Shown here: positions 1-18,766 of the stretch, piece after piece
How positions within the stretch are numbered: the first letter of the stretch is position 1
How the letters are laid out: every line of letters starts with the position of its first letter
Source: Anaerolineae bacterium
Lineage (GTDB): Bacteria > Chloroflexota > Anaerolineae > JAAEKA01
DNA: 64,000 bases
Assembly (NCBI GenBank): GCA_049294015.1
Contig: JBAQCH010000024.1
Coordinates: 62,226 to 126,225 of the forward strand
Direction: 5' to 3'
Translations under genes and position numbers: made by a program
Notes under the pieces: model-generated
The model's input: the letters and a program-made list of their open reading frames with translations, nothing else
Told to the model about the DNA's origin: nothing
Databases searched by the model: none

Positions 1-2070
1 ATGGGCCTGATCTTCCTGCGCCACGCCTACAGCCGCTACCTGGGGGTCAGAGATGCGATCGTGGCCGGCCTGCCCAGCCGCGGCGGCGTGGCCCGCCCGC
101 TGACCAAGGAGGACTTCTCGCAGCGCAGCGCGATCTTCCTGCGGCCCGAGGCCCAGTTCGACCACCTGGTGGCGCTGACCGACCGCGACGACCGGGCCCG
201 GGCCATCATCGCCGCGATGGAGTCCATCGAGGCCGACTACGAGAACCTGCGCGGCGTGCTGCCCAAGAGCGAGTACCAGGAGCTGGACAACCAGGTGCTG
301 GGCCAACTGCTGCGCACCCTCAATCCCGACGAGCTGAAGCGGGTTTCCGGCGACGTCTTCGGCCGCATCTACGAGTACTTCCTGACCCAGTTTGCCGACC
401 AGAAGGCCCACGACGGCGGCGAGTTCTTCACCCCTGTCTCTCTGGTCTCGCTGATCGCCAACGTGCTGGCGCCGCAGGGCGGGCGAGTGCTGGACCCGGC
501 CTGCGGCAGCGGCGGCATGTTCGTGCAGAGCGCCCGCTTCGTGGAGCGCCAGCACGGCAACCCGGTGGAGAAGCTGACCTTCTACGGCCTGGAGAAGAAC
601 AGCACCACCATCCGCCTGGCCAAGATGAACCTGGCCGTGCATGGGCTGGAGGGGGACATCCAGCAGGCCATTACCTACTACGAGGACCCGCACGAGCTGC
701 TGGGCAAGGCCGATTTCGTCATGGCCAATCCCCCCTTCAACGTGGACGAGATCGACGCCGACAAGGTCAAGCGCGACCCGCGCCTGCCCTTTGGCCTGCC
801 GGGCGCCAACAAGAAGGGCAAGGTCTCCAACGGCAACTACATCTGGATCAGCTATTTCTACAGCTACCTGAACCAGCGGGGCCGGGCCGGCTTCGTCATG
901 TCCAGCCAGGCCTCCAGTGCGGGGCGGGACGAGGCCAGGGTGCGCCAGAAGCTGGTGGAGACGGGCGACGTGGACGTGATGATCGCGGTGCGCCCTAACT
1001 TCTTCTACACCCGCACCGTGCCCTGCGAGCTCTGGTTCCTCAACCGGGCCAAGTCGGCCGTGCCCTCATCCCCGGCCCTTCTCCCAGGGGGAGAAGGGAG
1101 TGTGGGCGGCGGCGCGCCGCTGAACCACAAGGGGTGCGTGCTGATGATCGACGCGCGCGCCATCTACCGCAAGGTGACGCGCAAGATCTACGACTTCAGC
1201 CCGGAGCAGGAGCAGAACCTGCTGGCGGTGGTCTGGCTGTACCGCGGGCAAAGCGATAAATACCTGGCGTTGGTGGCCAGCTACTGCCGGCGCACCCTGG
1301 ACGAGGCCGCGGCCTGTTTCCGCATGGCGGGCGAGAACGGCCAGCCGGTCGAGCCGCTGCCAGCCTTCGACGCCAGCCTGGCCGGCCTGCGGGCGGCGAT
1401 GCAACCCTTCCTGCACAGCCGAGCCGCTGATGGCCCGCAGGCCGGGCCGCAGCAGGAGCTGGCCGCCGCCGCGGCCCTCTTCCGCGCCGACGTGGACGCG
1501 TTCCGCGCCGCGCTGGCCGAACAGCAGGCGCTCTGGCAGGGCCAACAGACCAGCAACGGCGCGCTGCAAGCCGCCGTGGACAGGCTGGCGCCATTGGCCG
1601 AGATGAGCCGCGACCTGGTGCGGCAGAGTGACCTGCTGGTCAAGCTGGCCGCCCGGCTGATCGAAACGTGCGAGAAGGAATGCGAGGCCGGCGAGAGCGA
1701 CCTGTGGCCAAACCGGGAGATCAACCGGCTGCGCAGAGCCGCCGACGAGGCCCGTCAGGCCGCGGTGGAGCAACTCAAGCAGGTGCGCACCATCTGGCGG
1801 CAGGCCCACTGGCTGGTCGAGCGCTTCCCCGACGCCGAGCTGCGCGACGTGCCGGGGCTGGTCAAGCTGGTGGACGTGCAGGAGATCGCGGCCAACGACT
1901 GGAGCCTGACCCCCGGCCGCTACGTGGGCGTGGCCCCGGCCGAGGAGGACGAGGACTTCGACTTCGAGGAGGCGTTGCGCGAGATCCACGTGGAGCTGGA
2001 GGACCTGAACGCCGAGGCGGTGGAACTGGCGGCTACTATCCAGCGCAATTTCAAGGAGCTGGGAGTATGA
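1..2070 (+). CDS. hsdM: Type I restriction-modification DNA methyltransferase subunit HsdM; 5' end probably lies upstream of the window
   Basis: Translation contains HsdM N-domain-like LIFLRHAYSRYLG, AdoMet motif LDPACGSGGMF, catalytic NPPF (MANPPFNV) and a long helical C-terminal region. Conserved HsdM_N sequence sits at residue 1, so the true start is likely outside the window. Stop overlaps the next start as ATGA at 2067-2070. Confidence 0.9.
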   Translation: MGLIFLRHAYSRYLGVRDAIVAGLPSRGGVARPLTKEDFSQRSAIFLRPEAQFDHLVALTDRDDRARAIIAAMESIEADYENLRGVLPKSEYQELDNQVLGQLLRTLNPDELKRVSGDVFGRIYEYFLTQFADQKAHDGGEFFTPVSLVSLIANVLAPQGGRVLDPACGSGGMFVQSARFVERQHGNPVEKLTFYGLEKNSTTIRLAKMNLAVHGLEGDIQQAITYYEDPHELLGKADFVMANPPFNVDEIDADKVKRDPRLPFGLPGANKKGKVSNGNYIWISYFYSYLNQRGRAGFVMSSQASSAGRDEARVRQKLVETGDVDVMIAVRPNFFYTRTVPCELWFLNRAKSAVPSSPALLPGGEGSVGGGAPLNHKGCVLMIDARAIYRKVTRKIYDFSPEQEQNLLAVVWLYRGQSDKYLALVASYCRRTLDEAAACFRMAGENGQPVEPLPAFDASLAGLRAAMQPFLHSRAADGPQAGPQQELAAAAALFRADVDAFRAALAEQQALWQGQQTSNGALQAAVDRLAPLAEMSRDLVRQSDLLVKLAARLIETCEKECEAGESDLWPNREINRLRRAADEARQAAVEQLKQVRTIWRQAHWLVERFPDAELRDVPGLVKLVDVQEIAANDWSLTPGRYVGVAPAEEDEDFDFEEALREIHVELEDLNAEAVELAATIQRNFKELGV
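1063..1100 (+). repeat. ~38-bp palindromic element CCCTCATCCCCGGCCCTTCTCCC-AG-GGGGAGAAGGGAG inserted in-frame in hsdM (RPE-like)
   Basis: Perfect inverted repeat CCTTCTCCC/GGGAGAAGG. A near-identical copy (38/39) in opposite orientation lies inside hsdR at 13819-13857. Adds about 13 aa (SSPALLPGGEGSV) in-frame. Confidence 0.7.
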
Positions 2071-3092
2071 GCACCACAGAGTTATCCGTTCCAGATGATT
2101 ATGCAGTTCTGCTGGTCAAGGTCAAAGAACGGGTGCTTACTGCACAACTGCAGGCGTTCAGAGCGGTCAATACGGAGTTGATCGGCCTTTACTGGGATAT
2201 TGGGCGCATGATTGTGGAGAAGCAGGCTGGTGAGACTTGGGGCAAATCGGTCGTCCAACAACTGGCGGGGGATTTGCAGAATGAGTTCCCTGGCATCCGC
2301 GGTTTTTCCGCCTCCAATCTCTGGCGCATGAAGTCATTTTTTGAGACCTATGCAGCCTCGGAAAGACTCGCACAGCTTGTGCGAGAAATTGGCTGGGGCC
2401 ATAACTTGGTGATTCTAGCGCGCTGCAAAGATCCACTAGAGCGAGAATTCTACCTGCGCATGACCCGCAAGTTCGGCTGGTCGAGAAACGTGCTGGTCCA
2501 TCAGATTGAGAACCAGAGCTACGAGAAGACATTGCTTGGCCAGACCAACTTCGACAAAACGCTGTCGCCCGAACTGAGGGTGCAGGCAAGGCTAGCCGTC
2601 CGCGACGAGTACATCTTTGACTTTCTGGAACTGGACGAGCAGCACTCTGAGCGGGAGTTAGAACGAGCGCTGATTGGACGTATCGAGGAGTTTCTGCGCG
2701 CTTTGGGCGGAGTATTTGCTTTTGTGGGCAGCCAGTTCCGTCTGGAAGTTGACGATGAGGAGTTCTTCATTGATCTCCTGCTATACCATCGACGCCTGCG
2801 GGCGTTGGTGGCCATCGACCTCAAGATCGGCAAGTTCCAGCCGGAGTTCGTGGGCAAGATGCAGTTCTACTTAACGGCGCTGGACCGGCAGGTGCGCATG
2901 GAAGGCGAAAACCCCTCCATTGGTATCATTCTGTGCAAGGAAAAGAAGCGTACTATCGTCGAGTACGCCCTGTACGACGCCAGCAAGCCCATCGGCGTCG
3001 CCACCTATCGGGTTGTGCGCCAGTTGCCCAAAGACCTGCGCGGCCAGCTTCCCAGCCCGGAGGAGATCGCCAGACTCTTGGAGGAAGAGTGA
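2067..3092 (+). CDS. DUF1016/YhcG-family PD-(D/E)XK nuclease-like protein, inserted between hsdM and hsdS
   Basis: 341-aa product MSTTELSVPDDYAVLLVKVKERV...; N-terminal YhcG-like helical region and C-terminal nuclease-like core (EFFIDLLLYHRRLRALVAIDLKIGKF). ATG overlaps the hsdM stop (ATGA). Visibly lower GC than hsdM. Confidence 0.7.
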   Translation: MSTTELSVPDDYAVLLVKVKERVLTAQLQAFRAVNTELIGLYWDIGRMIVEKQAGETWGKSVVQQLAGDLQNEFPGIRGFSASNLWRMKSFFETYAASERLAQLVREIGWGHNLVILARCKDPLEREFYLRMTRKFGWSRNVLVHQIENQSYEKTLLGQTNFDKTLSPELRVQARLAVRDEYIFDFLELDEQHSERELERALIGRIEEFLRALGGVFAFVGSQFRLEVDDEEFFIDLLLYHRRLRALVAIDLKIGKFQPEFVGKMQFYLTALDRQVRMEGENPSIGIILCKEKKRTIVEYALYDASKPIGVATYRVVRQLPKDLRGQLPSPEEIARLLEEE

Positions 3093-3179
3093 TGGAGCAC
3101 CAAGGTGGAAGGGCAACAGGCACCAGACGGGCGCCTGGCGATGTTCCGGTATTCGGGCTTGGGCCTTCAGACATCTGCT

Positions 3180-3241
3180 GCACCGACGCGGTGGCGCTGG
3201 CCGCGACGATCAAGCGGAACTTCGAGGAGTTGGGGATATGA
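3180..3241 (+). pseudogene. Diverged duplicate of the hsdM 3' end (..DAVALAATIKRNFEELGI*), remnant at the cassette boundary
   Basis: Encodes AATIKRNFEELGI*, compared with the hsdM end AATIQRNFKELGV*; about 75% nt identity to 2017-2070. Its TGA overlaps the hsdS ATG (ATGA at 3238-3241). Confidence 0.6.
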
Positions 3242-4359
3242 GTTGGCAGCAGGCTCGACTCGCCGATATATCATCGATGAGAACGGGAAAGCTCGACTCA
3301 AATGCGGCCATTCCCGAGGGAGCGTATCCCTTTTTCACTTGCGCCCAGGAGACCTTGAGAATAGATGAACCTGCCTTTGACACAGAGGCGGTTCTACTGG
3401 GAGGAAACAACGCGGCAGGGATATTTCCCCTGAAGTACTACAACGGCCAGTTCAACGCTTACCAACGGACCTATGTGATCGAATCACTTGCACCAGATGT
3501 TCTGAATATCCGATATCTTTACTACGCTTTGCGTCCGGCTCTCGCACATTTTCAGTCTGCTTCTATCGGGGCCGCTACTCAGTATCTTACGAAGGGTATA
3601 CTGGACAATTTTCAAGTACCATTGCCCCCAGTTACTATTCAGAATCGCATCGTTATAATCCTCTCCGCCTACGACGACCTGATCGAGAACAACCGGCGGC
3701 GCATCCGCTTACTGGAGGAGGCGGCGCGGCTGCTCTACCGCGAGTGGTTCGTCCACCTGCGCTTCCCCGGTCACGAGCACGTGGCGGTGGTGGATGGCGT
3801 GCCAGAGGGGTGGGAGAGGAAGCGCCTAATCGAGGTTGCAGACATCAGGATGGGGCAAAGCCCGAAGTCCATCTACTACAATCAAGATGGTAACGGTCTT
3901 CCTTTTCATCAGGGAGTGAGCAACTTTGGCGGGAGATTCCCATCGCACGAAGTCTTCTGTACCATTTTAAGTCGGCTTGCAGAACCGGGCGACATTCTCT
4001 TTAGTGTACGGGCACCTGTTGGCAGGATCAACATTACACGCGACAAAATCGTGATTGGGCGCGGTTTGGCTGCAATTCGCTCCAACTGCGATCAGCAGAA
4101 TTTCCTTTTCTACGCATTGAAGAGCCATTTCTTCAAGGATGACATGATGGGCACTGGCGCGATTTTTGCCGCAATCACGAAGAATGACCTTCACGGCGTC
4201 CAACTGATGCATCCTCCGCTTCGACTCATCGAGATGTTTACGGAACATGCGCAACCGATTGATAGACAGATCGAGAATCTTCAACAGACAATCGATGGTC
4301 TTGTGAAAGCCCGCGACTTGCTCTTGCCGCGGTTGATGAATGGAGAGATCAGCGTATGA
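3238..4359 (+). CDS. hsdS: Type I RM specificity subunit HsdS (two low-GC target-recognition domains around a conserved central region)
   Basis: MSWQQARLADISS... start. Central conserved HsdS repeat region IVIILSAYDDLIENNRRRIRLLEEAARLLYREWFVHLRFPGHE and C-terminal conserved LVKARDLLLPRLMNGEISV. TRD segments are visibly AT-richer than the conserved core. Confidence 0.85.
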   Translation: MSWQQARLADISSMRTGKLDSNAAIPEGAYPFFTCAQETLRIDEPAFDTEAVLLGGNNAAGIFPLKYYNGQFNAYQRTYVIESLAPDVLNIRYLYYALRPALAHFQSASIGAATQYLTKGILDNFQVPLPPVTIQNRIVIILSAYDDLIENNRRRIRLLEEAARLLYREWFVHLRFPGHEHVAVVDGVPEGWERKRLIEVADIRMGQSPKSIYYNQDGNGLPFHQGVSNFGGRFPSHEVFCTILSRLAEPGDILFSVRAPVGRINITRDKIVIGRGLAAIRSNCDQQNFLFYALKSHFFKDDMMGTGAIFAAITKNDLHGVQLMHPPLRLIEMFTEHAQPIDRQIENLQQTIDGLVKARDLLLPRLMNGEISV

Positions 4360-7300
4360 ACTCTCCAAGAAGACAGCTCAGCAATTCGTTCTCAACTGGC
4401 GGTGGCGGCGGCCATTTCGAAGCACATCTACAGGCATCCTTTGTTGTTCTGATGCTTACCGGTGGACATGCACCTTGCCTGCCCTGTTGGCCAATCGTCA
4501 AGATCAAGCTGCAAGGAAGGATCGAAGGATTTGACACTGACGACCTGATCGTATTTGTTGAGAATGGCGATACTGGAGAAACACGGAAGCTCTTGGGACA
4601 GGTCAAGCATTCAGTTAGCATCACACAAAGCGACACCGTCTTTGGAGAAGTGATCCAGGCTGCTTGGAATGATTTCAACAATCCAACGGTCTTCACCCGC
4701 GGCAAGGATGTGATTGCGCTGATTACTGGTCCATTGAGCGCAACTGATACGCATAATGTGCAGTGGATATTGGGCCAAGCACGACACACAAGCGGAGTTG
4801 ACGAGTTCTACAGAAACGTCGAGCAAGCGAATTTTAGTCCGCCCAAGAGTGAGGAAAAGCTGGCAGCAATCCAGCATCACCTAAGGACCGCCAACAATGG
4901 CACCGCCGTTTCGCGAGAGGTTCTCTATGATTTCCTGAACCACTTCCATCTGTTAAGCTACGACTTAGGGACCGAGCATGGTGTTGTCTTGTCGTTGCTT
5001 CATTCACCTATCTCGCAGCGTAACCGAAATGCCCCGCAAATGCTTTGGTCGCGGGCTGTGGACATCGTACAAACCTGGAATCAAGATGCTGGAACGATCA
5101 CTCGGGAACGGCTTCCCGAGGATCTGGTGGACGCGTTTGAGCCTACCATCATAGCCCATATTCCCGAAGAGTTGACAACCAAAGATCTCGAAACTCAGAA
5201 AACTGACTGGGATCGGCATCAATACGCCTCCGATTTGGCTCTCGCAAATCTTGTTGGTGCATGGGATGAGAAAAGCGCCGCAGATATTGAAGCCTTGACC
5301 GGAGTAATTGGGATAGAGTATGCAACGTGGGTCAAGGAAGCACGAGAGATCTTACACCTTCCCGGTAGTCCTCTGTCACTCAAAAACGGCGAGTGGAAGG
5401 TTACTGAGCGGGCTGAACTGTGGTCTTCTCTGGGTTCGCGCGTTTTCGATCAACATCTTGACTCCTTCAAGGCTGCAGCTATTGCCGTGTTGAGGGAACG
5501 CGACCCGGCTTTTGATCTTTCACCTGAAGATCGCTTTGTGGCGAGTCTCCGAGGAAAAGCTCCCCATCACAGTTCAGTGCTCAGAATGGGCCTGGCTAAT
5601 GGATTAGCGATTCTGGGCAATCATGCGGGCGCATTAGCCAACTGTTCACGCGGAAAAGCAGAGGCCACCGTAATCTTGGCGATTCGGGAGATTTTCACTG
5701 ACGCTGATTGGAAGCTCTGGGCAAGCCTGAATAACCTTTTACCTGTCATGGCCGAAGCCGCACCCAATGAATTTCTCGATGCTGTGGAGAATGCTCTGCA
5801 GCAGTCACCTTGTCCCTTTGATGAACTCTTCGCTCAGGAAGAGAGTGGCATTATGGGGAGGAACTACCTGACCGGACTACTCTGGGCATTGGAAGGACTA
5901 GCATGGGATGAGCATTACCTTGTCAGAGTTTGTGTTATACTGGGGGAACTTGCCAGTCATGATCCTGGCGGCAACTGGACAAATCGCCCAATCAACTCTC
6001 TGATAACAATCCTTCTTCCATGGTATCCGCAGACTCTTGCACCAATCGAGAAGCGCCAAGTTGCAGTCAGGACGCTCTGCAAAGAGTCGCCAGGTATCGG
6101 TTGGAACTTGATCATTCAGTTGCTGCCTAATCAGCACCGGACATCCTCAGGTTCACATAGACCTTCATGGCGCAAGATAATTCCAGAAGACTGGGAAAGT
6201 GGTGTCTCAGGCCAAGAGTACTGGCAACAGGTGTTCTTCTATGCGGAGCTTGCTGTCTCGATGGCAGACTATGATGCTGCTAGACTCGCCGAACTCATCG
6301 AACACCTTGATAAGCTGCCAAGTTCAGCACTCGATCAACTTCTAGGGGTTCTGTCTTCGGACGCAATCTCAGGTCTTCCCGAAGAACAGCGGCTTCTGCT
6401 TTGGGATCAACTTACGAAGTGCATCATCAGACACAGGCGCTATTCCGAAGCAAAATGGGCATTTGACGACGATCGCATTTCTCAGATCGAGGCAGTGGCC
6501 AACGCCGTGGCACCAGAGAATCCTTTGATTCGATATCAGCCACTTTTTTCCGCTAATGACTTTGACCTCTACGAAGGACGAGATGATTGGCGGCAACAGC
6601 AAGAAAGACTGAACGAGCGGCGTCTGCATGCTATAGAGGAAATACTCAGAACCGGCGGAGTCGATGCAGTCATCGAACTTGCGAAATCGGTCATCTCCCC
6701 AATCCAGGTCGGATACATACTCGGAAGCATCGCTGATTCGATCATTGACTCTGAACTGCTTCCTAAGTATCTGGACTCGGAAACCAGTCAGATCATATCA
6801 TTCATCCGCGGCTATGTTTCAAGCCGGTTCACAGTGAATGGATGGCCTTGGGTGGATGGTCTGGATAGATCGACATGGAGCCTTGAACAGAATGCGATAT
6901 TCCTGAGTTGCTTGTCGTTCTCAAAGGACACTTGGGATCGAGCCGATCAATGGTTGGGTGAAGAACAAGGGGAGTATTGGTCGAGAACTAGTGCAGTTCC
7001 ATATGGAACTGACGAGGATTTGCATGCTGCCGTTGAGAAGTTGATCGACTACGGCAGACCTCAGGCTGCAATTCGCTGTTTGGACAGCATGCGTCATGAC
7101 AACCGACCGCTTGATGTCACGCAATGTATTCGAGTGCTACTAACCACCGTGTCTTCATCTGAACCTGTGGACTCGATGGCCAGGTATCATATTGTCGAGC
7201 TCATCAAATACCTTCAGAACAACTCTGAAGTGCCCTCGGATGATATCGCCAACATAGAATTGATATATCTTCCCCTACTGGATCATGACCAGGGAGTAGC

Positions 7301-7904
7301 GCCCAAACTGTTGGAGCTGCGTCTGGCCACCGATCCTTTATTCTTTTGTGAAGTACTGCAACTCATCTATCGTTCACGGAATGAGGGTGCACCTCGAACT
7401 GAGCCAACCGAGTTATCAAGGGCGATTGCGTCACACGGCTGGCAATTACTTCATCACTGGCAAACGGTGCCTGGAATACAAGAGGATGGTAGTTTCGATG
7501 AAGACCGATTTTCGGCTTGGCTTCGTCGCGTACAAGAGATTTGCACTGATTCGGGCCATATAGACGTTGCGCTCAGCACCATCGGCGAGGTTTTGATATA
7601 CTCTCCTGCCGATGCAACTGGTTTATGGATAAATCGTACGGTAGCGGAGGCGCTAAACGCGCGCGATGCAGAAGATATGCGAACTGGCTTTCGCATGGGA
7701 GTACTCAACTCTAGGGGTGTTCACTTGGTTGATCCCACTGGACAACCGGAACGAGAATTGGCGGAACAGTTCCGTCAGAAAGCAGACGATGTTGAAAACG
7801 TCGGTTTTCAGCGTTTCGCGGTCACGCTTAGGGATCTTGCCGAGAGATACGATCGCGAAGCCGAGCAAATAATCGCCGACCATCGTCAGGAAGCCGCTGA
7901 ATGA
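4356..7904 (+). CDS. Large uncharacterised protein (1182 aa), lower GC, mostly predicted helical; possible N-terminal PD-(D/E)XK-like nuclease motifs. Candidate novel defence component.
   Basis: Long uninterrupted ORF; start ATG overlaps the hsdS stop (ATGA). No Walker A, DEAD or HNH motif seen. N-terminal 90 aa contain HFEAHL ... FDTDDLIVFVENGDTGETRKLLGQVK, a possible E / D / (Q)xK arrangement. Remainder is Leu/Ala-rich with Trp/Asp periodicity, suggestive of alpha-solenoid repeats. Confidence 0.7.
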   Translation: MNSPRRQLSNSFSTGGGGGHFEAHLQASFVVLMLTGGHAPCLPCWPIVKIKLQGRIEGFDTDDLIVFVENGDTGETRKLLGQVKHSVSITQSDTVFGEVIQAAWNDFNNPTVFTRGKDVIALITGPLSATDTHNVQWILGQARHTSGVDEFYRNVEQANFSPPKSEEKLAAIQHHLRTANNGTAVSREVLYDFLNHFHLLSYDLGTEHGVVLSLLHSPISQRNRNAPQMLWSRAVDIVQTWNQDAGTITRERLPEDLVDAFEPTIIAHIPEELTTKDLETQKTDWDRHQYASDLALANLVGAWDEKSAADIEALTGVIGIEYATWVKEAREILHLPGSPLSLKNGEWKVTERAELWSSLGSRVFDQHLDSFKAAAIAVLRERDPAFDLSPEDRFVASLRGKAPHHSSVLRMGLANGLAILGNHAGALANCSRGKAEATVILAIREIFTDADWKLWASLNNLLPVMAEAAPNEFLDAVENALQQSPCPFDELFAQEESGIMGRNYLTGLLWALEGLAWDEHYLVRVCVILGELASHDPGGNWTNRPINSLITILLPWYPQTLAPIEKRQVAVRTLCKESPGIGWNLIIQLLPNQHRTSSGSHRPSWRKIIPEDWESGVSGQEYWQQVFFYAELAVSMADYDAARLAELIEHLDKLPSSALDQLLGVLSSDAISGLPEEQRLLLWDQLTKCIIRHRRYSEAKWAFDDDRISQIEAVANAVAPENPLIRYQPLFSANDFDLYEGRDDWRQQQERLNERRLHAIEEILRTGGVDAVIELAKSVISPIQVGYILGSIADSIIDSELLPKYLDSETSQIISFIRGYVSSRFTVNGWPWVDGLDRSTWSLEQNAIFLSCLSFSKDTWDRADQWLGEEQGEYWSRTSAVPYGTDEDLHAAVEKLIDYGRPQAAIRCLDSMRHDNRPLDVTQCIRVLLTTVSSSEPVDSMARYHIVELIKYLQNNSEVPSDDIANIELIYLPLLDHDQGVAPKLLELRLATDPLFFCEVLQLIYRSRNEGAPRTEPTELSRAIASHGWQLLHHWQTVPGIQEDGSFDEDRFSAWLRRVQEICTDSGHIDVALSTIGEVLIYSPADATGLWINRTVAEALNARDAEDMRTGFRMGVLNSRGVHLVDPTGQPERELAEQFRQKADDVENVGFQRFAVTLRDLAERYDREAEQIIADHRQEAAE

Positions 7905-8191
7905 CCCATAACTGCGACACCGAAGGCACCCTCGTCCAACAGACCACCACCGAGCATCTGCATCAGCACCTCGGATGGCGGGCGGTCTATGCCTACAACC
8001 GCGAGGACTTCGGAGCGGGCGGTCTGCTGGGGCGGGCATCGGACCAGGAGGTGGTACTGACGCGGCCGTTGCGTGCCAAGCTTGTCGAGCCGAACCATGA
8101 CTTGGCCGACGCGGCCTGCCAAGACCCTGCATTACGACTCAACAATGCCAAATACGGGCTTGAAACGATGAATGGAGAGATCAGCGCATGA
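7901..8191 (+). pseudogene. Remnant fusion of the hsdR 5' end (about 190 nt, ~80% identical to 12340-12530) and the hsdS 3' end (ETMNGEISA*); recombination scar between cargo 1 and cargo 2
   Basis: Encodes TEGTLVQQTTTEHLHQHLGWRAVYAYNREDFGAGGLLGRASDQEVVLTRPLRA (hsdR N-terminus is TEDTLVQQTTADYLEQQLGWRSVYAYNREDFGPDSLLGRASDREVVLTRPLRA) and ends with ..MNGEISA* (hsdS ends ..MNGEISV*). The 24-nt atgaatggagagatcagcg(t/c)atga is shared by 4336-4359 and 8167-8190. Confidence 0.6.
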
Positions 8192-10293
8192 AAGCCACCG
8201 AAGCCAACTTGCTGGATTTCCTTAAGAAGTCACCTCAGTTTGTAATCCCGATCTACCAACGCACGTATAGCTGGACCGAGCGCGAATGCCGCCAGCTTTG
8301 GGATGACATCCTGCGCACCGGCAGCAACGACGCCATCGCCGCCCATTTTGTCGGTTCTATCGTCTACATCGAGAAGGGTCTATATCAGGTCACAAGCCAG
8401 TCGCCGCTGTTGGTGATCGACGGCCAGCAACGACTGACGACCGTCATGTTGATCCTGGAAGTGCTGGCGCGCCACGTGGGAAACAGCGAGCCGGTCGATG
8501 GTTTCTCGGCCAGGAAACTCCGCAGCTACTACCTGCTTAACCCGCTGGAGGACGGTGAACGGCACTTCAAGCTGCTGCTTACGCAGACTGATAAGCAAAG
8601 TCTCCTGGCGATGGTGCAGCAGAAGCCTCAGCCCGTCGAGCCGTCGCTGCGCATCGCGGACAACTTCGCCTTCTTCGAAGAGCAGATCAAGGCCCTCGGG
8701 AAGAACCTGACACCGCTGTGCAAAGGGTTGGCAAAGCTCGTGATCGTCGACATCTCACTGAGCCGGGATCAGGACAACCCGCAGCTCATATTTGAGAGTA
8801 TGAACTCGACTGGCCGTGAGTTGAGCCAGGCCGACCTGATTCGCAATTTCATTTTGATGGGGCTGGAGCCAGCCCAACAGACGCAGCTTTACGAAGATCA
8901 CTGGCGGCCGATGGAGGTTGACTTCGGCCAGGAGGCCTACGGCACCCAGTTCGACAGCTTCATGCGTCATTACCTGACTTTGAAGACTGGCGATATCCCC
9001 AATGTCCGTGCCGTTTACGAGGCGTTCAAGTCTCACGCCCGCTCTCCAGAAGTTGTGGCAGCAGGCATCGAGGCCTTGGTTGAAGACATCCATCGCTATG
9101 CTGGCTACTATTGTGCGATGGCTTTGGACAAGGAATCCAGCAAGGAGTTGGCAGAAGCCTTCCGGGATCTGCGCGAGATGAAGGTCGATGTGGCGTATCC
9201 ATTCCTTCTGGAACTGTACCACGACTTTGCCGAGGGGGTGTTGCCTGAAGCCGATTTCCTCCAGGCCGTGCGGTTGGTGGAGGCTTACGTGTTCCGCCGG
9301 GCCGTGTGCGCAATTCCTACCAACTCTCTCAACAAGACCTTCGCCACGTTCAGACGCGCCCTCAAGAAAGAGCGCTACATTGAGAGTATCCAGGCGCATT
9401 TCCTCACATTGCCGTCCTATCGCCGTTTCCCCAACGATGAGGAGTTCAAGCGCGAGTTGTCCATTCGTGATCTCTACAATTTTCCCCGTCGTAGCTATTG
9501 GCTGCGACGCCTGGAGAATTTTGACCGGAAGGAGCGAGTGTCGGTGGGTGAATACACCATCGAACACATTCTTCCCCAGAACGAGAACCTTTCCGTCGCA
9601 TGGCGTCAGTCGCTCGGTCCAGAGTGGCGACGTATACAAGAAACCTGGCTGCACACACTGGGGAATCTCACATTGACGGGCTACAATGCCGAGTACAGCG
9701 ATCGACCGTTCCAGGAAAAACGAGATATGCCGGGCGGGTTCAAAGAGAGCCCACTGCGGCTCAATCAAGGACTTGGTGCACTGGACGCGTGGAACGAAGC
9801 TGCCATTCAGGCACGGGCGAAGCATCTTGCCGAAAAGGCCGTCAAGGTATGGGCAGCGCCCGCCCTATCGGACGCCGTGCTCGAGACCTACCAGTCAAAG
9901 GCCGAAAAGTCTGTTGGCTATAGCATCTCCGACCATCCACATGTGGCTGAAGGCGGGACCATGCAGGCCCTGTTTGAGCAACTCCGCAAGGAGATCCTGG
10001 CGCTGGACCCTTGCGTTTCCGAGGAGATTCTCAAGCTCTACATCGCCTACAAAGCTGAGACCAACTTCGTGGACATCGTGCCACAGAAGAGTCGCCTCCG
10101 CCTCTCTCTCAACATGCACTTTCACGAGTTGAACGACCCCAGGGAGATGGCCAAAGATGTGACCAATCTGGGCCGCTGGGGAAATGGCGACGTGGAGGTC
10201 GGCCTGAATCAACCGGAGGACATACCCTATGTCATGGGTTTGTTGCGTCAGGCCTTTGAGAAACAGATGGGCAACGGGATAGAGACGGAATGA
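8188..10293 (+). CDS. GmrSD-family fused DUF262 (ParB/Srx-like NTPase) plus DUF1524 (His-Me/HNH-like nuclease) protein; likely type IV modification-dependent restriction enzyme or BrxU/SspE-like effector
   Basis: N-terminal DUF262 hallmarks IPIYQRTYSWTERECRQLWDD and VIDGQQRLTT. C-terminal DUF1524-like region with EYTIEHILPQN. ATG overlaps the upstream remnant stop (ATGA). Confidence 0.85.
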   Translation: MKATEANLLDFLKKSPQFVIPIYQRTYSWTERECRQLWDDILRTGSNDAIAAHFVGSIVYIEKGLYQVTSQSPLLVIDGQQRLTTVMLILEVLARHVGNSEPVDGFSARKLRSYYLLNPLEDGERHFKLLLTQTDKQSLLAMVQQKPQPVEPSLRIADNFAFFEEQIKALGKNLTPLCKGLAKLVIVDISLSRDQDNPQLIFESMNSTGRELSQADLIRNFILMGLEPAQQTQLYEDHWRPMEVDFGQEAYGTQFDSFMRHYLTLKTGDIPNVRAVYEAFKSHARSPEVVAAGIEALVEDIHRYAGYYCAMALDKESSKELAEAFRDLREMKVDVAYPFLLELYHDFAEGVLPEADFLQAVRLVEAYVFRRAVCAIPTNSLNKTFATFRRALKKERYIESIQAHFLTLPSYRRFPNDEEFKRELSIRDLYNFPRRSYWLRRLENFDRKERVSVGEYTIEHILPQNENLSVAWRQSLGPEWRRIQETWLHTLGNLTLTGYNAEYSDRPFQEKRDMPGGFKESPLRLNQGLGALDAWNEAAIQARAKHLAEKAVKVWAAPALSDAVLETYQSKAEKSVGYSISDHPHVAEGGTMQALFEQLRKEILALDPCVSEEILKLYIAYKAETNFVDIVPQKSRLRLSLNMHFHELNDPREMAKDVTNLGRWGNGDVEVGLNQPEDIPYVMGLLRQAFEKQMGNGIETE

Positions 10294-10391
10294 GTTTCAC
10301 CGAAGACACCCTCGTCCAACAGACCACCGCCGACTACCTCGAACAGCAGCTCGGCTGGCGCTCGGTCTACGCCTGTAACGATGGAGAATAA
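10290..10391 (+). pseudogene. Near-identical duplicate of the hsdR 5' end (about 85 nt, ~97% identical to 12343-12428) ending in a degenerate junction (..VYACNDGE*)
   Basis: ttcaccgaagacaccctcgtccaacagaccaccgccgactacct.gaacagcagctcggctggcgctcggtctacgcct is shared with the hsdR start. ATG overlaps the GmrSD stop (ATGA at 10290-10293). Confidence 0.6.
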
Positions 10392-12033
10392 CAGCATGAG
10401 CATTGAAGGTCAGGATTGGGACCGCAAGTCGCTACGCTTCGTCGAAGGACGTTCCGCCAACTGGGACGAAGTCGCCAAAGACTGTGTGGCCTTTGCCAAT
10501 GCGCAGGGCGGCGGGTTGTTGATCGGTATCGAGGATGATGCATGGGCGCCGCCGGCGGGTCAGCGTATTGCGGACGAACTGATCGAACGTGTGCGCCGCC
10601 GGATCGGCGAGCTGACTGTGAATGTCACCTGCGCGGTGCAGCGAGAATTGTCCGCTGAAACCGGCGGCGAATTTCTGCGGGTGACTGTTTCTCGCTCTCA
10701 TGCCCCTGCATCTACCACCGATGGCCGCTACTACTTTCGCATTGCGGACGAGTCCAAACCCCTCGTGGGCGAACAAGTTCAACGCCTGCTCAACGAGCGC
10801 AACGCTCAGCCCTGGGAGACGCTGACGACTCTCAGCGTGCCGCGCGGCCAGACGGATCCGGCCAAGCTTGCGGCGTTCACTGCGGCTATTCGGGCATCCA
10901 GCCGGGTCAAGGCGTCGGTCAAGGAGAAGGGCGACGCGGAATTGCTGGATCACTACTACCTGGCCATCGATCGCCACCTGACCAACCTGGGCATTCTCTG
11001 TGTCGGACGCAGGCAGGATCGTGTTCAACTGGGCGCAGCGCCGGTGATTCAGTTCATCAAGTACGATCAGGATGATCGCAAGGTCAGCAAACTCTCCTGG
11101 GATGATCACTCTCTGACGCCGATGGAACTGGTGGAGGCAGTGTGGCGGGAGGTTCCGGATTTCCGCGAGACCTATGAACTGCCGGACGGCCTGTTTCGAC
11201 AATACCTGCCGGCCTATGACCAGCGGGTGGTACGGGAACTACTCGTCAACGCGTTGGTGCATCGACCATACACCCAACGGGGCGACATCTATCTGAATCT
11301 TTACCCGGATCGATTGCAGGTCGTCAATCCAGGATTACTACCTTTGGGTGTCACTCCTCAGACCATCCTGCACCAATCGGTGCGGCGAAACGATGAGATG
11401 GCGCGCGTGTTTCACGATCTGGGGCTGATGGAGCGTGAGGGCAGCGGGTATGATCTGCTTTACGAGGTCTTGACTTCGCAGGGACGAAAGCTGCCAGAAG
11501 TTCGTGAGGGAAGTGATCGGGTCGAAGTGGTCGTTTACCGGCGCGTAATCAAGCCCGTGGTGATTGATTTCCTGTCCAAGGCGGACGCTGCGTACCACCT
11601 AACGCAACGTGAACGAATAGCGCTGGGAATTCTGGTTCAATACGATGCTCTGACGATGCGAGAGCTAGCCAATCTCCTGGAGTTGCAGGACACATCGTCT
11701 GTGAATTTCTGGATCGAGAGGCTTCTGGAATGGAGAATTGTTAAGCAGGTTGGAAAAACAAGCGGGACCCGCTATTTTGTCGATCCCGATCTACTGGACA
11801 GGATGAACTTTCCAAGTAAGACAACCCTTGCTCGTATTGAGACTCATCGACTCCGTGCCCTGATTTTGGAGGATTTGCGAAGACATCCAGGTTCTTCCAC
11901 AAGTAAGATGCGTGAGCGCATTGGAGATGAGATCCCTATGCAACAAATTCGCAGGCAGCTCGCCATTCTGACAAAGGAAGGCCTAGTAGTGTTTCGAGGA
12001 GATAAACGCTGGCGTCGGTACTGGCCGACATGA
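10381..12033 (+). CDS. Schlafen-like AlbA_2 (divergent AAA) domain protein with HATPase_c_4-like middle region and C-terminal winged-helix; ATP-binding putative DNA-binding regulator or defence protein
   Basis: N-terminal AlbA_2 signature E..K.LRFVE...W.EVAKDCVAFANAQGGGLLIGIEDD. Middle RELLVNALVHRPY...GDIYLNLYPDRLQVVNPG matches the HATPase_c_4/RecG-C-like motif. C-terminal region is wHTH-like. 3' third is AT-richer. Confidence 0.75.
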   Translation: MENNSMSIEGQDWDRKSLRFVEGRSANWDEVAKDCVAFANAQGGGLLIGIEDDAWAPPAGQRIADELIERVRRRIGELTVNVTCAVQRELSAETGGEFLRVTVSRSHAPASTTDGRYYFRIADESKPLVGEQVQRLLNERNAQPWETLTTLSVPRGQTDPAKLAAFTAAIRASSRVKASVKEKGDAELLDHYYLAIDRHLTNLGILCVGRRQDRVQLGAAPVIQFIKYDQDDRKVSKLSWDDHSLTPMELVEAVWREVPDFRETYELPDGLFRQYLPAYDQRVVRELLVNALVHRPYTQRGDIYLNLYPDRLQVVNPGLLPLGVTPQTILHQSVRRNDEMARVFHDLGLMEREGSGYDLLYEVLTSQGRKLPEVREGSDRVEVVVYRRVIKPVVIDFLSKADAAYHLTQRERIALGILVQYDALTMRELANLLELQDTSSVNFWIERLLEWRIVKQVGKTSGTRYFVDPDLLDRMNFPSKTTLARIETHRLRALILEDLRRHPGSSTSKMRERIGDEIPMQQIRRQLAILTKEGLVVFRGDKRWRRYWPT

Positions 12034-12333
12034 TGTTCTATCGAACAAAAAGCACTGAATTCAATGCAAAAATGCTAACACTGTTACTTAAATGAGATTG
12101 TTGACTTCCGTAGCGCGATACATTGCTGATGCATTGCTTGTTTCGATTTCTATATATTGTATTCAATAAGTTATCTGATACTATATGTAGTGATTGTCAA
12201 AGACAAGTAAAGCCTAGAATCCCGATTCTCGCTGAAAATTCTATCTAACAAATCCTGTTGAGTTTTCGTGAATTGTCAATTAGCTGTTCGTTAGGCAGAC
12301 GTTTACAAGTGCGCAACATATGAGAAATGACCG
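12034..12333 (+). promoter_or_regulatory. 300-bp strongly AT-rich intergenic island directly upstream of hsdR; candidate promoter region (for example TTGTAT-16-TACTAT at 12157-12184) and probable 3' edge of the last inserted cassette
   Basis: AT-rich sequence (for example ctatatattgtattcaataagttatctgatactatatgtagtgattgtcaaag) contrasts with the GC-rich flanks. The promoter hexamers are a weak call because the AT richness produces many matches. Confidence 0.35.
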
Positions 12334-15300
12334 ATGAAGGCTGATCGATTCACCGAAGACACCCTCGTCCAACAGACCACCGCCGACTACCTGGAACAGC
12401 AGCTCGGCTGGCGCTCGGTCTACGCCTACAACCGCGAGGACTTCGGGCCGGACAGCCTGCTGGGCCGGGCGTCGGACCGGGAGGTGGTGCTGACGCGGCC
12501 GCTGCGCGCCGCGCTGGCCGCGCTCAACCCGGACCTGCCCGCCGCGGCCTACGACGACGCCGTGCGCCAGCTCGTCAGCGTGACAGCCACCCAGTCGCTG
12601 CTGGCAACGAACCGCGAGAAGTATACCCTGATCCGCGATGGCGTGCCGGTCAGTTTCCGCAACGCCAGGGGCGAGCTGGAGCGGCGCCGGCTGCGGGTGA
12701 TCGACTTCGCCGACCCGGCCGCCAACGACTTCCTCTGCGTGCGCGAGCTGTGGGTGCGGGGCGACCTCTACCGGCGGCGGGCCGACATCGTGGGCTTCGT
12801 CAACGGCCTGCCCCTGCTCTTCATGGAGCTGAAGAACGTCAGCCGGGACATCCGCGCCGCCTACGAACGCAACTTCAAGGACTACCTGGATACCGTGCCC
12901 CACCTGTTCCACCACAACGCGGTGGTGGTGCTGGCCAACGGCGTGGACGCCAAGCTCGGCTCGCTGACCAGTCGCTTCGAGCACTTCCACGAGTGGAAGC
13001 GGCTGGACGAGGACGAGCCGGGCGTGGTGGACATGGAAACCCTGCTCAAGGGCATCTGCCAGCCGGCCAACTTCCTGGACCTGGTGGAGAACTTCATCCT
13101 CTTCGACGACTCGGCCGGCGAGCCGAGGAAGATACTGGCCCGCAACCACCAGTTCCTGGGCGTCAACCGCGCCATCCGGGCTGTGGAGGAGCGCCGCCAG
13201 CGCCAGGGCAAGCTGGGCGTCTTCTGGCACACCCAAGGCGCGGGCAAGAGCTACTCCATGGTCTTCTTCACGCGCAAGGTGCATCGCAAGCTGGGCGGCA
13301 ACTTTACCTTCCTGGTGCTCACCGACCGGGAGGACCTGGACACGCAGATCTACAAAACCTTTGCCGGCTGCGGCGTGGTGGACAACGACCGCGATCCCTG
13401 CCGGGCGGCCGGCGGCCAGCATCTGAACCAACTGCTGACCCTGCACAAGGCGTACATCTTCTCGCTGATCCAGAAGTTCAACCGCGACGTGGAGCCGGAT
13501 CAGCCCTACAGCGAGCGGGAGGACATCATTGTCATCAGCGACGAGGCCCACCGCAGCCAGTACGGCAGCCTGGCGCTGAACCTGCGCAACGCGCTGCCCA
13601 ACGCCAGCTCGATCGGCTTCACCGGCACGCCCCTCTTCAAGAATGACGAGATCACCCGCCGCGTCTTCGGCGACTACGTTTCCACCTACGACTTCCAGCG
13701 CGCGGTGGCGGACAAGGCCACTGTGCCCCTTTACTACGACGCGCGCGGCGACAAGCTGGGCGTGGTTACCGACGACCTGAACGAGCGCATCGCCGAGAAG
13801 CTGGAGGAGATGGAAAACTCCCTTCTCCCCACGGGAGAAGGGCCGGGGATGAGGGGATTCGACATCGACGTCGCCCAGCGGCTGGAGCGCGAGCTGGAGC
13901 GGGACTATCACGTCATCACCGCCGGTAAGCGGCTGGATCAGATCGCCCAGGACTTCGTCGAGCACTATTCAACCTCTTGGGAGACCGGCAAGGCGATGCT
14001 GGTCTGCATCGACAAGGTGACCTGCGTGCGCATGCACAAGCTGGTCGGGTTCTACTGGGATCAGCGCATCAAGGCGCTGGAGCGAGCAGCGCCCGCGGCG
14101 ACCGACGAGCAGGACGAGCAATATCGCCGTCGCCAGATCGAATGGATGCGCGCGACCCGCATGGCTGTGGTGATCAGCGAGGAGCAGGGCGAGGTGGCTA
14201 GATTCCAGCAGTGGGGATTGGACATCACGCCCCATCGCCGCCTCCTCAAGGAGGGCATGGACCTGCCGGAGGCCATGCGCCAGCAGCCCCAGTACCGCGC
14301 CATGCAGCGCCTGGCCCTGGACGATGCCTTCAAGGCCGAGCAGCACCCCTTCCGCATCGCCATCGTCTGCGCCATGTGGCTGACCGGCTTCGACGTGCCC
14401 AGCCTGGCGACGCTCTACCTGGACAAGCCACTCAAGGCCCACACCCTGATGCAGGCCATCGCGCGCGCCAACCGGGTCAACGAGGGCAAGAACAACGGCC
14501 TCCTCGTGGACTACTGCGGCATCCTCAAGAACCTGCGCCAGGCCCTGGCCACCTTTGCCGGCGCAGGGGATGGCGGCCGCGACGGCGACGGCGGCGAGAT
14601 CGACCCGGCCCGCCCTGAGCAGGAGCTGCTGGCCGATCTGGCTGAGGCCGTCGCGCTGGTGCAGGCGTTTTTGGCCGAACGGGGAGCGTCGCTGGATGCC
14701 ATCATCAGCCAGGCAGGCTTCGCCCGCAACGCGGCCATCCTGGCGGCCAAGGAAGCGGCCAACCAGAACGACGCGACGCGCAAGCGCTTCGAGGTCATGT
14801 GCCGGGCGGTGTTCAGCAAGTTCAAGGCTTGTCTGACCCTGGCCGGCGTCAACGCCCACCGGCGCGACAAGAGCGCCATCGACATCGTCTACCAGAGCCT
14901 GCAAGCCGACCGCGCGCAGGCCGACATCAGCGCCATCACGCAGGAATTGCACGAGATCGTCGACCAGGCCATCGCGGTGTGGCGCAGCCCGACAGCCGCT
15001 GACCGGGCGCCGTACGACATCAGCCAGATCGATTTCGAGCGCCTGCGACGGGAGTTCGAACGCAGCCCCGCCCAACGCACCACTGTGCAGAATCTCAAGA
15101 CTGCCATCGAGCGCCGCCTCCAGCGCCTGCTGGCGCAGAACCCCCTGCGAGCTGACTTGCAGCGGCGCTACGAGGAGATCGTGGCCGACTACAACCGCGA
15201 GAAGGACCGCCTGACCATCGAGCAGACCTTTGAGGAATTGCTGCGCTTCGTGCAAGCCATGGACGAGGAGGAGACGCGCGCCGCACGCGAGGGATTGACC

Positions 15301-15627
15301 GAGGAAACGCTAGCCGTGTTCGACCTGCTCAAGAAGCCTGAGCTGGCGCCGCAGGAGATCGAGCGCATTAAGAGGGTGGCGGGCGACTTGCTGGCGACGC
15401 TCAAGGCCGACAAGCTGCGCGTCGAGCAGTGGCAGGACAAGGAGGCCACGCGCGACGCCGTGCGCCAGGCCATCCTCGATTTCCTGTGGAACGACAGCAC
15501 CGGCCTGCCGGTCGGCCGCTACAGCGAGCGTGATGTGCAGGCGCGCGCCGACGTGGTCTATCAGCACGTCTTCCGGGTCTATCCCAGGCTGCCCTCGCCC
15601 TATTACGAGCTGCGCATGGCCGCGTAA
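12334..15627 (+). CDS. hsdR: Type I restriction enzyme R subunit HsdR (SF2 helicase/nuclease)
   Basis: 1097 aa; Walker A GVFWHTQGAGKSYSMVFF, DEAH box VISDEAHRSQYG, helicase motifs; long helical C-terminus. High GC like hsdM. Confidence 0.9.
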   Translation: MKADRFTEDTLVQQTTADYLEQQLGWRSVYAYNREDFGPDSLLGRASDREVVLTRPLRAALAALNPDLPAAAYDDAVRQLVSVTATQSLLATNREKYTLIRDGVPVSFRNARGELERRRLRVIDFADPAANDFLCVRELWVRGDLYRRRADIVGFVNGLPLLFMELKNVSRDIRAAYERNFKDYLDTVPHLFHHNAVVVLANGVDAKLGSLTSRFEHFHEWKRLDEDEPGVVDMETLLKGICQPANFLDLVENFILFDDSAGEPRKILARNHQFLGVNRAIRAVEERRQRQGKLGVFWHTQGAGKSYSMVFFTRKVHRKLGGNFTFLVLTDREDLDTQIYKTFAGCGVVDNDRDPCRAAGGQHLNQLLTLHKAYIFSLIQKFNRDVEPDQPYSEREDIIVISDEAHRSQYGSLALNLRNALPNASSIGFTGTPLFKNDEITRRVFGDYVSTYDFQRAVADKATVPLYYDARGDKLGVVTDDLNERIAEKLEEMENSLLPTGEGPGMRGFDIDVAQRLERELERDYHVITAGKRLDQIAQDFVEHYSTSWETGKAMLVCIDKVTCVRMHKLVGFYWDQRIKALERAAPAATDEQDEQYRRRQIEWMRATRMAVVISEEQGEVARFQQWGLDITPHRRLLKEGMDLPEAMRQQPQYRAMQRLALDDAFKAEQHPFRIAIVCAMWLTGFDVPSLATLYLDKPLKAHTLMQAIARANRVNEGKNNGLLVDYCGILKNLRQALATFAGAGDGGRDGDGGEIDPARPEQELLADLAEAVALVQAFLAERGASLDAIISQAGFARNAAILAAKEAANQNDATRKRFEVMCRAVFSKFKACLTLAGVNAHRRDKSAIDIVYQSLQADRAQADISAITQELHEIVDQAIAVWRSPTAADRAPYDISQIDFERLRREFERSPAQRTTVQNLKTAIERRLQRLLAQNPLRADLQRRYEEIVADYNREKDRLTIEQTFEELLRFVQAMDEEETRAAREGLTEETLAVFDLLKKPELAPQEIERIKRVAGDLLATLKADKLRVEQWQDKEATRDAVRQAILDFLWNDSTGLPVGRYSERDVQARADVVYQHVFRVYPRLPSPYYELRMAA
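13819..13857 (-). repeat. Second copy of the ~38-bp CCCTCATCCCCGGCCCTTCTCCC..GGGAGAAGGGAG palindromic element, inverted orientation, in-frame inside hsdR
   Basis: The reverse complement of 13819-13857 matches 1063-1100 at 38/39 nt. Encodes SLLPTGEGPGMRG in HsdR. Confidence 0.7.
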
Positions 15628-15630
15628 CAG

Positions 15631-15666
15631 CCGTCCCCAGCATGTGGTCAACGGGGCGTTTTTGGG
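15631..15666 (+). terminator. Weak candidate rho-independent terminator after hsdR (short GC stem plus TTTTT)
   Basis: ccgtcccc-agcatgtggtcaac-ggggcg followed by ttttt right after the TAA stop; the stem is short and imperfect. Confidence 0.3.
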
Positions 15667-15700
15667 TTCTCGCACACAAAGACCGAGAATATACCCTCGC

Positions 15701-16324: not shown

Positions 16325-16374
16325 GATGTCGTCATTATAGCGCCACAGCCCAAAAAACTCAACCCAGCGCCCGT

Positions 16375-18543: not shown

Positions 18544-18766
18544 CCTCCTGGTGATAGATGTCCCGCCTATCGTATCACAGAAGTAACTATTCAGCCATAG
18601 GTGCCGGGCACTTGAATCTGCGCTTGCACGGATGCCCGCAACGCCGACTCAGGCCCACAAATCGATCGCAAGTGCCCGCCACCTGGATAGTTACTCACAG
18701 AACAGAGTGCAGAGACATGACAGGGGTCATATCTGGGCGAAATTTTCCGATCTGGCATCGGGCCTG

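Follow-up and report, generated by a model that had tools for sequence, protein, structure and literature searches.

A 64,000-nucleotide stretch of DNA from an Anaerolineae bacterium (Chloroflexota; contig JBAQCH010000024.1, positions 62,226 to 126,225 of the forward strand), referred to here as the window, contains a Type I restriction-modification (R-M) operon in which a gene for an 1182-amino-acid (aa) protein is placed between hsdS and hsdR. Structure prediction, motif conservation and the architectures of its relatives suggest that this protein is probably a stand-alone, single-polypeptide immune sensor-effector nuclease, with a predicted Cap4-type nuclease domain at its N-terminus fused to a C-terminal helical solenoid.

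The gene is a complete open reading frame (ORF) at 4356..7904 (+), stop codon included, which starts with ATG and has no internal stops. Its product is 100% identical to MFZ2358081.1, a 'hypothetical protein' of an Anaerolineae metagenome-assembled genome, and it is not a chance frame, because 1778 database proteins match it. The ATG (4356-4358) overlaps the TGA of hsdS (4357-4359) as ATGA, a Shine-Dalgarno-like GGAGAG (4342-4347) lies ~10 nt 5' of it, and the TGA of the gene (7902-7904) and the ATG that opens the following ORF (7901) overlap likewise; we infer that the gene is co-transcribed and translationally coupled with hsdS. The GC content along the gene is 0.49-0.52, whereas that of hsdM, hsdR and the flanking sequence beyond is 0.65-0.72, and the lowered GC covers the whole stretch ~2000-12500, of which the gene is just one part. 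The first-pass annotation of the window had described the gene as AT-richer than hsdM and hsdR, coupled to hsdS through ATGA, and followed by two defence genes in the same block. All of this was borne out, the two genes being identified as GmrSD-like and Schlafen-type with Pfam and PADLOC.

The N-terminal ~260 residues are predicted to form a Cap4-type PD-(D/E)xK DNA endonuclease domain (Cap4/DUF4297 type, residues ~18-260, 4407..5135, +), which would be the same effector domain as in Cap4 of the cyclic oligonucleotide-based antiphage signalling system (CBASS), Avs3, Lamassu LmuA and type I-B Hachiman HamA. AlphaFold 2 (AF2) was run on residues 1-300 alone with 129 sequences, including homologues from a search seeded with divergent N-terminal domains, and gave a model with a predicted local distance difference test score (pLDDT) of 83.4 and a predicted template modelling score of 0.76. 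The modelled core consists of helix 20-35, strands 46-51, 64-69 and 76-84, helix 94-107 and strand 119-124, followed by a helical lobe, and corresponds to a restriction-endonuclease-like alpha-beta-beta-beta-alpha-beta core with the Cap4-specific helical lobe.

The active-site signature of Cap4 nucleases is D...QxK (D45, Q58 and K60 in HamA-Cap4, common to CBASS Cap4), mutation of which abolishes Hachiman defence and cleavage (PMC11914072). In the window protein, Q82-V83-K84 on the third core strand (codons 4599..4607, +) match Q58-x-K60 of HamA-Cap4, the predicted metal-binding aspartate is D63, located just N-terminal of strand 64-69 (D62-D63, codons 4539..4544, +), and a glutamate, E22, is found in the first helix (codon 4419..4421, +). 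Across the family alignments A1 to A4, E22 is invariant in A1, A2 and A3 and present in at least 90% of sequences in A4; D63 is invariant in A3 and either invariant or at least 90% conserved in A1, A2 and A4; Q82 is invariant in A1, A3 and A4 and at least 90% conserved in A2; and K84 is kept in at least 90% of sequences of A1, A2 and A4. These four residues are (near-)invariant down to ~33% identity, the pattern of a working active site, and D62 also belongs to the (near-)invariant residues of the domain.

A degenerate PD-(D/E)XK or Mrr-like core of ~90 aa had been suggested earlier for the N-terminus, together with the advice to model it separately. The separate model did yield a restriction-endonuclease core, and the PD-(D/E)xK class and the E...D...QxK motif stood, while the predicted type is Cap4 instead of Mrr, and the domain comprises ~260 residues in the AF2 model. 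A nuclease of this kind might also have decayed, leaving a dead domain with a DNA-binding or structural part only and a protein that serves as a scaffold or regulator. The N-terminal domain lacks a sequence match to any nuclease family, and defence proteins often contain PD-(D/E)xK domains that are inactive (e.g. DUF1837, type I-B to I-D Hachiman; PMC11914072). With E22, D63, Q82 and K84 retained family-wide, and with the domain sitting where bona fide enzymatic effectors sit in the sister architectures described below, decay appears very improbable.

The nuclease domain is followed by a variable linker (residues ~261-290, 5136..5225, +), delimited by the highest column entropy, by match boundaries and by low pLDDT. 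This region is the junction at which alternative N-terminal domains are attached and the cut point of split forms; the sole highly variable stretch of the family is the linker at residues ~271-300. The C-terminal module opens with a small helix/strand unit (residues ~291-350, 5226..5405, +; AF2, pLDDT 77-92), composed of helices 308-318 and 322-333 and strands 340-343 and 346-349, with conserved G301, W303, D310, N344, G345 and W347; the unit may be winged-helix-like. It leads into an all-helical HEAT/ARM-like solenoid, the presumed sensor or scaffold (residues ~351-1177, 5406..7886, +), which is uninterrupted after residue ~350 in the AF2 model. The pLDDT is mostly 80-95 over residues ~290-1177, and beyond residue 290 the model is nearly all helix save three short strands within 302-349, in agreement with the earlier suggestion that the remaining ~1000 aa form an alpha-helical repeat scaffold. 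As modelled, the solenoid would be rigid and NTPase-free (NTPase, nucleoside triphosphatase). Residues 1-120, 451-570 and 1081-1140 are the most conserved parts of the protein, and 600-960 is more variable. Fold searches with the full model returned generic solenoids only, with no defence protein among the matches.

No match above noise was obtained for the 1182-aa protein in Pfam, PADLOC 2.0, NCBIfam or PDB sequences (phmmer), the sub-threshold noise consisting of TPR_LAA1_C (17 bits) and RlmH (14 bits), and a motif scan found no Walker A, DEAD or other NTPase motif. Pfam searches of 40 diverse relatives (33-50% identity) gave singletons and no recurrent family, and the family profile had zero matches to PDB sequences. 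The named NCBI/RefSeq homologues encountered are, like the source record, labelled 'hypothetical protein'. These results agree with the first-pass annotation, which had seen no recognisable NTPase, helicase or other motif, and no homology to a housekeeping family, the finding that would have spoken most directly against its proposal, came to light.

A word-indexed protein search recovered the 1778 relatives, of which the top 120 are ~1180 aa long, essentially full-length matches, 60-67% identical (the source record 100%), and come from Chloroflexi, Proteobacteria, Planctomycetes, Firmicutes and others. An exhaustive search of 50%-identity representatives gave 6684 clusters at E <= 1e-3 and 3086 clusters at E <= 1e-30, from bacteria and archaea. 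Related loci were collected by scanning with two conserved peptides, using one genome per species; 386 relatives were found, and 80 loci were retained, which include Methanoperedens, Methanosarcinaceae, Methanocalculus, Saccharibacteria, cyanobacteria, Chlorobi and Paenibacillus. The family is present in 8 of 5426 complete E. coli genomes. Its patchy spread over bacterial phyla and archaea at 48-67% identity points to horizontal transfer. Hardly any indels occur in the family alignments along ~1180 residues.

The 150 best 50%-identity representatives were used for a census of architectures. The Cap4-like N-terminal domain is present in 108 of them, 11 consist of the C-terminal module alone, and 31 carry another N-terminus, attached at the same linker. 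The Cap4-nuclease branch is the dominant architecture of the family and appears to be undescribed and unannotated. According to Pfam and PADLOC, the other N-termini comprise SIR2_2 (in P0320, P0340, P0367 and P0384; the type associated with prokaryotic Argonaute, PADLOC E 1e-101), TIR_2/bSEFIR, DUF4062, PNP_UDP_1, DUF4145 (HEPN-like), Abi_C, SLFN_AlbA_2, Metallophos (which matches a CBASS effector model), GT4-conflict and FRG. A hallmark of prokaryotic sensor-effector immune proteins is that known abortive-infection effectors are exchanged on a single conserved module, and from sequence comparison the solenoid in the relatives can be described as a portable module joined to many putative immune effector domains. 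The second commonest N-terminus is an unannotated domain of ~375 aa (13 of 150; P0335 and 12 others), which has no Pfam or PADLOC match and, judged by its position, is a candidate new immune effector domain. The ~180-aa N-terminal domain of P0351, P0362 and P0380 is likewise unannotated.

The module also occurs in split and more distant forms. In Stenotrophomonas and in a metagenome, an N-terminal protein of 303-321 aa is followed by an overlapping C-terminal protein of 866-879 aa, and another split form is found in Buttiauxella. Distant C-terminal modules (25-29% identity) on rhizobial and Shewanella conjugative plasmids belong to proteins of ~1350 aa with an N-terminal XRE-type helix-turn-helix (HTH_3). 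These variants (for example at 5639-9709 of locus L092 and 152-4264 of locus L094) are named 'transcriptional regulator' or 'HigA antitoxin' in RefSeq, and one is found beside AbiEi/AbiEii.

Neighbouring genes were counted at 85 non-redundant related loci within as much flank as was available (up to 10 kb), and no constant adjacent partner gene was found across them. HsdS is encoded near the homologue at 11 of the loci, and at nine (L031, L042, L043, L045, L053, L055, L058, L075 and L076) it lies directly upstream, usually overlapping. HsdM occurs at 11 loci and HsdR at 10, directly downstream in three cases (L045, L061 and L075). L045 and L075 have the minimal order hsdM-hsdS-X-hsdR, where X is the homologue, with overlaps at both junctions of X, and L055 has the window-like order hsdS-X-Schlafen-hsdR. 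Other recurrent neighbours are Schlafen/HATPase_c_4 proteins (5/85), RhuM (5/85) and a PglX-like methylase (4/85). At three loci (L033, L046 and L048), a homologue of ~1180 aa lies between pglX and pglZ of a bacteriophage exclusion (BREX) operon, with a Schlafen-like gene one slot upstream; L033 encodes an Eco57I/N6_Mtase methylase and BrxL (Pfam). Further homologues are found between Wadjet JetABCD and a HEPN/MNT pair with Type I R-M in Desulfosporosinus, in an AlpA/DUF927 island in Microbulbifer, in an Alloalcanivorax island that follows guaA and includes SymE, Fic and hsdR, next to type IV secretion system genes in Stenotrophomonas, on a conjugative plasmid of Shewanella with Abi and superinfection-exclusion genes alongside, and, in E. 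coli A28, adjoining IS3 at the tail-fibre end of a lambdoid prophage. Recurrence in hsd operons, in BREX operons and beside other defence genes is what the first-pass annotation had asked to be checked for its candidate.

The three BREX loci (about 4700-16700 in each) are of type 1, with the Schlafen AlbA_2/HATPase_c_4 gene directly 5' of pglX, itself preceded by a gene for an 1165-aa protein with a weak AAA_22 match only, possibly brxC. The pairing of a Schlafen gene with the ~1180-aa cargo is common to these loci, the window hsd operon and L055.

These surroundings can also be read without immunity. The gene is always found in variable or mobile regions (islands, integrative and conjugative elements, plasmids and prophage ends), the plasmid relatives fused to HTH domains are annotated as regulators or antitoxins, and some contexts contain no recognisable defence genes. 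The protein might be a maintenance or addiction nuclease of mobile elements, or an island DNA-processing enzyme, whose solenoid scaffolds island-encoded partners. However, no conserved partner or antitoxin gene was found, the strongest recurrent neighbours are R-M and BREX, and the SIR2, TIR, DUF4062, PNP, HEPN-like, Abi_C and Schlafen N-terminal domains are canonical abortive-infection effectors and not maintenance functions. We regard a non-immune role as distinctly unlikely.

The recurrent place in R-M and BREX operons suggests a different kind of immune role, that of a PrrC-like guard. The conserved solenoid would read the HsdM/HsdS or the BREX PglX complex, and an attack of the Ocr/ArdA/Stp kind would free the Cap4-type DNase, killing the cell. 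The hsdM-hsdS-X-hsdR slot is that of prrC in the EcoprrI locus, the window gene has ATGA overlaps at both ends, and the hsdS-X order, often overlapping, and the X-hsdR order recur at the loci listed above. BREX, which houses the gene between pglX and pglZ, is a second methylation-dependent system. The conservation of the solenoid fits a conserved host complex better than fast-evolving phage proteins. All major branches of a neighbour-joining tree of the family include scattered hsd-embedded copies, which indicates that the hsd association is old or has been repeatedly re-established.

On the other hand, an hsd gene is present in the flank at 18 of the 85 loci and absent at 67, and the copies of E. 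coli, the Shewanella plasmid, Microbulbifer and Stenotrophomonas stand alone. Co-occurrence with hsd is not obligate for the family, and the earlier suggestion of a specificity or regulatory module of the hsd complex does not hold as a general role. The Hsd families also vary by locus, the nearest (L076) sharing 67% identity with the window in HsdM/HsdR and 33% in HsdS. Finally, unrelated cargo in the window operon (YhcG, GmrSD and Schlafen-like) bears the same hsd-flank scars, described below, and hitch-hiking by recombination therefore explains the position without a functional link. A guard of the host R-M or BREX system is, in our judgement, an unlikely explanation.

We favour a stand-alone immune sensor-effector nuclease, and several observations weigh against this assignment. 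In the first AF2 run, on the full-length protein with 48 sequences, residues 1-280 were modelled without confidence (N-terminal domain pLDDT 25-50), and the models leave the N-terminal domain's arrangement relative to the solenoid unfixed. The N-terminal domain has no sequence-level match to Pfam Cap4_nuclease or to any other family, so its assignment to the Cap4 type rests on predicted structure and motif conservation. Such conservation and rarity of indels are unusual, since sensors in an arms race usually diverge more. Some homologues lie in ordinary surroundings (a polysaccharide cluster; a metabolic neighbourhood), none was found in the phage GenBank set, and homologues are rare in IMG/VR (7 loci). 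For the nuclease-bearing members, we infer the defence role, including DNA cleavage, the trigger and oligomerisation. Taken with the Cap4-type domain, the swapping of effectors and the R-M, BREX and Abi contexts, the original description of the protein as a strong anti-phage candidate is supported, its activity being putative.

We hypothesize that the nuclease domain is kept inactive in the uninfected cell. During infection, the solenoid would bind a trigger of phage origin. As with DSR2 and Vulcan (discussed below), this is most likely a protein. Binding would cause a conformational change or self-association, by which autoinhibition is relieved and nuclease domains are united; in Cap4, Avs3 and LmuA, activation brings nuclease domains together. 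The active nuclease would then cut DNA without sequence specificity, so that phage replication stops and the infected cell is lost (abortive infection). The gene would have reached the hsd operon by recombination through conserved hsd flanks, and its position would reflect a hotspot and no obligate partnership with the restriction enzyme.

If this proposal is correct, the family is a widespread single-gene immune system, represented by thousands of sequence clusters in bacteria and archaea, E. coli included, and recognised by none of the defence-annotation resources used. It would add an NTPase-free control of a Cap4-type nuclease to the known controls, which are cyclic nucleotides, STAND ATPases (signal transduction ATPases with numerous domains), SMC-like proteins (structural maintenance of chromosomes) and helicases. 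The solenoid of ~900 residues would be a portable sensor on at least a dozen effector types; as one sensor is carried by many effectors, finding its trigger would explain many architectures together, and the C-terminal module could be used as bait for new effectors, such as the unannotated ~375-aa domain. Because homologues are repeatedly embedded in Type I R-M and BREX operons, whether such genes guard the host system or hitch-hike can be tested directly. Were the protein a guard, PrrC-like logic would have been built from entirely different parts across bacteria and archaea, and this would account for the coupled hsdS/hsdR or pglX/pglZ position in lineages scattered over the family tree.

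The window operon has the order hsdM, YhcG/DUF1016, hsdS, the 1182-aa gene, a 96-aa remnant, GmrSD-like, Schlafen-type and hsdR, and thus contains four cargo genes. The YhcG/DUF1016, hsdS, 1182-aa, remnant, GmrSD-like and hsdR frames are on the + strand. hsdM is at 1-2070 (Pfam, PADLOC); it is probably cut by the window edge, as alignments with the L076 orthologue and the PADLOC model begin at residue 37 of the former and position 37 of the latter, and its product is unusually long for an HsdM (~700 aa). A YhcG/DUF1016 PDDEXK cargo gene (2070-3092; YhcG_C 1.6e-61, DUF1016_N 6e-47) separates it from hsdS; at L031, three tandem YhcG-type copies lie ahead of hsdS. The specificity gene hsdS, which overlaps the 1182-aa gene, is at 3238..4359, its start being inferred (Pfam Methylase_S, PADLOC Specificity_I). 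Downstream of the 1182-aa gene and the remnant ORF (7901..8191) are the GmrSD-like gene (GmrSD_N, GmrSD_C and DUF5655; 8188-10293; Pfam, PADLOC) and the Schlafen-type gene (AlbA_2, HATPase_c_4 and HTH; 10381-12033; Pfam, PADLOC). The DUF5655 of the GmrSD-like Type IV restriction gene is an extra C-terminal domain (residues 591-692) matching PADLOC candidate PDC-S18. The restriction gene hsdR (12334..15627; HSDR_N, SWI2_SNF2, ResIII and T1RH-like_C) forms the downstream limit of the cargo block.

The ends of the hsd genes are repeated between the cargo genes. The hsdR 5' end occurs in three places: at its true start (12349-12558), as a copy after the 1182-aa gene (7916-8125) with 82% identity to 12351-12558, and as a 96% copy after GmrSD (10296-10379). 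The 26 nt of the hsdS 3' end that contain GGAGAG and the ATGA overlap (4335..4360) recur identically at 8167-8192, before the GmrSD start. The 96-aa ORF is composed of the hsdR 5' copy at 7916-8125 followed by the hsdS 3' copy at 8167-8192, its hsdR part sharing 64% aa identity with HsdR 1-80, and was ruled out as a partner gene. Similarly, a second version of the HsdM C-terminal end ('...ATIQRNFKELGV') follows YhcG ('...ATIKRNFEELGI'), just 5' of hsdS (~3170-3241). Each cargo gene therefore bears fragments of its source hsd junction, and the simplest reading would be serial acquisition by homologous recombination between hsd operons that had different inserts beforehand. The scar pattern is a clean example of cargo stacking within an hsd operon. 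Insertion by a homing endonuclease was ruled out, as unrelated cargo has the same flank scars and sister proteins have non-nuclease effectors.

L076 is the closest hsd locus, and X likewise follows hsdS there. Its downstream cargo (13925-20177) differs, consisting of an IS3-type transposase, HATPase_c_3 with Mrr_cat, a DNA methylase and a HIRAN protein. The hsd lineage of the window and L076 appears to be a defence-gene hotspot. A hairpin-forming element of 39 nt (CCCTCATCCCCGGCCCTTCTCCCAGGGGGAGAAGGGAGT) lies in frame within hsdM (1063-1101, +), with an inverted copy, 95% complementary, within hsdR (13817-13855, -). The window has no further copy, and the element might represent an inversion site or the insertion of a miniature repeat.

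The proposed system was compared with known systems that share parts of its design. ARMADA, a DISARM-related four-gene system, was ruled out as its identity, as was Evangelion, in the text of whose paper HEAT repeats, a solenoid and a helical C-terminal module all go unmentioned, and the 'Component modularity networks' preprint does not mention such a family. In CBASS Cap4, LmuA and HamA, the nuclease is controlled by a SAVED sensor, the SMC-like LmuB and the helicase HamB, respectively, whereas a fused solenoid without a partner gene is predicted here. The likeness to PrrC and RloC lies in the slot between hsdS and hsdR, in co-transcription, and in the occurrence of some family members away from R-M. 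PrrC, however, is an ABC-ATPase with a tRNA-cleaving RNase, whereas the 1182-aa protein has no ATPase motif and no PADLOC match and is a predicted DNase.

Upx is a single protein of ~1200 aa which combines a PD-(D/E)xK nuclease with an NTPase-free sensor of the phage terminase (Gao 2020; PDB 9wuf; PMC13601566, PMC13099982). Its order is reversed, with an N-terminal sensor and a C-terminal ExK nuclease, and the window protein has no PADLOC Upx match. The family shares with the Avs proteins a variable N-terminal effector and a C-terminal repeat sensor. In Avs3 (AVAST type 3, e.g. SeAvs3, PDB 8dgc), however, a central STAND NTPase drives oligomerisation, whereas the 1182-aa protein has no P-loop, NTPase family match or alpha/beta NTPase domain, and no sequence or fold relationship was detectable between its solenoid and the Avs sensors.

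DSR2 combines a SIR2 domain with a HEAT-like solenoid by which the phage tail tube protein is sensed (PMC11850899, PMC11263360). It too is a single-gene system whose enzymatic effector is joined directly to a HEAT-like alpha-solenoid, with no NTPase. The N-terminal domain of DSR2 is a SIR2 NADase and that of the window protein a predicted nuclease, SIR2 being found in sister architectures only, and no homology was established between the helical region of the 1182-aa protein and the MID/CTD of DSR2. The design resembles that of Avs3 stripped of its STAND ATPase, or that of DSR2 if a nuclease replaced SIR2, and the protein is a member of neither.

Vulcan (E. roggenkampii WP_050009967.1) is a single-protein defence system composed of NIR/DUF4062 and HEAT repeats, which defends experimentally and whose NADase is triggered by a small phage protein, lambdap79 (bioRxiv 10.64898/2026.09.04.749371, September 2026). 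In both proteins an N-terminal effector is fused directly to C-terminal HEAT repeats, and a family member, P0338 (1114 aa, 44% identity over residues 290-1172), joins DUF4062 to the C-terminal module; the effector of Vulcan is an NADase, whereas that of the window protein is a predicted nuclease with no DUF4062 match in Pfam. The earlier label of an 'undescribed' anti-phage protein may need softening, because the validated DUF4062-HEAT protein may share the C-terminal module. Vulcan may be the closest published relative, and the 1182-aa protein its possible nuclease sibling.

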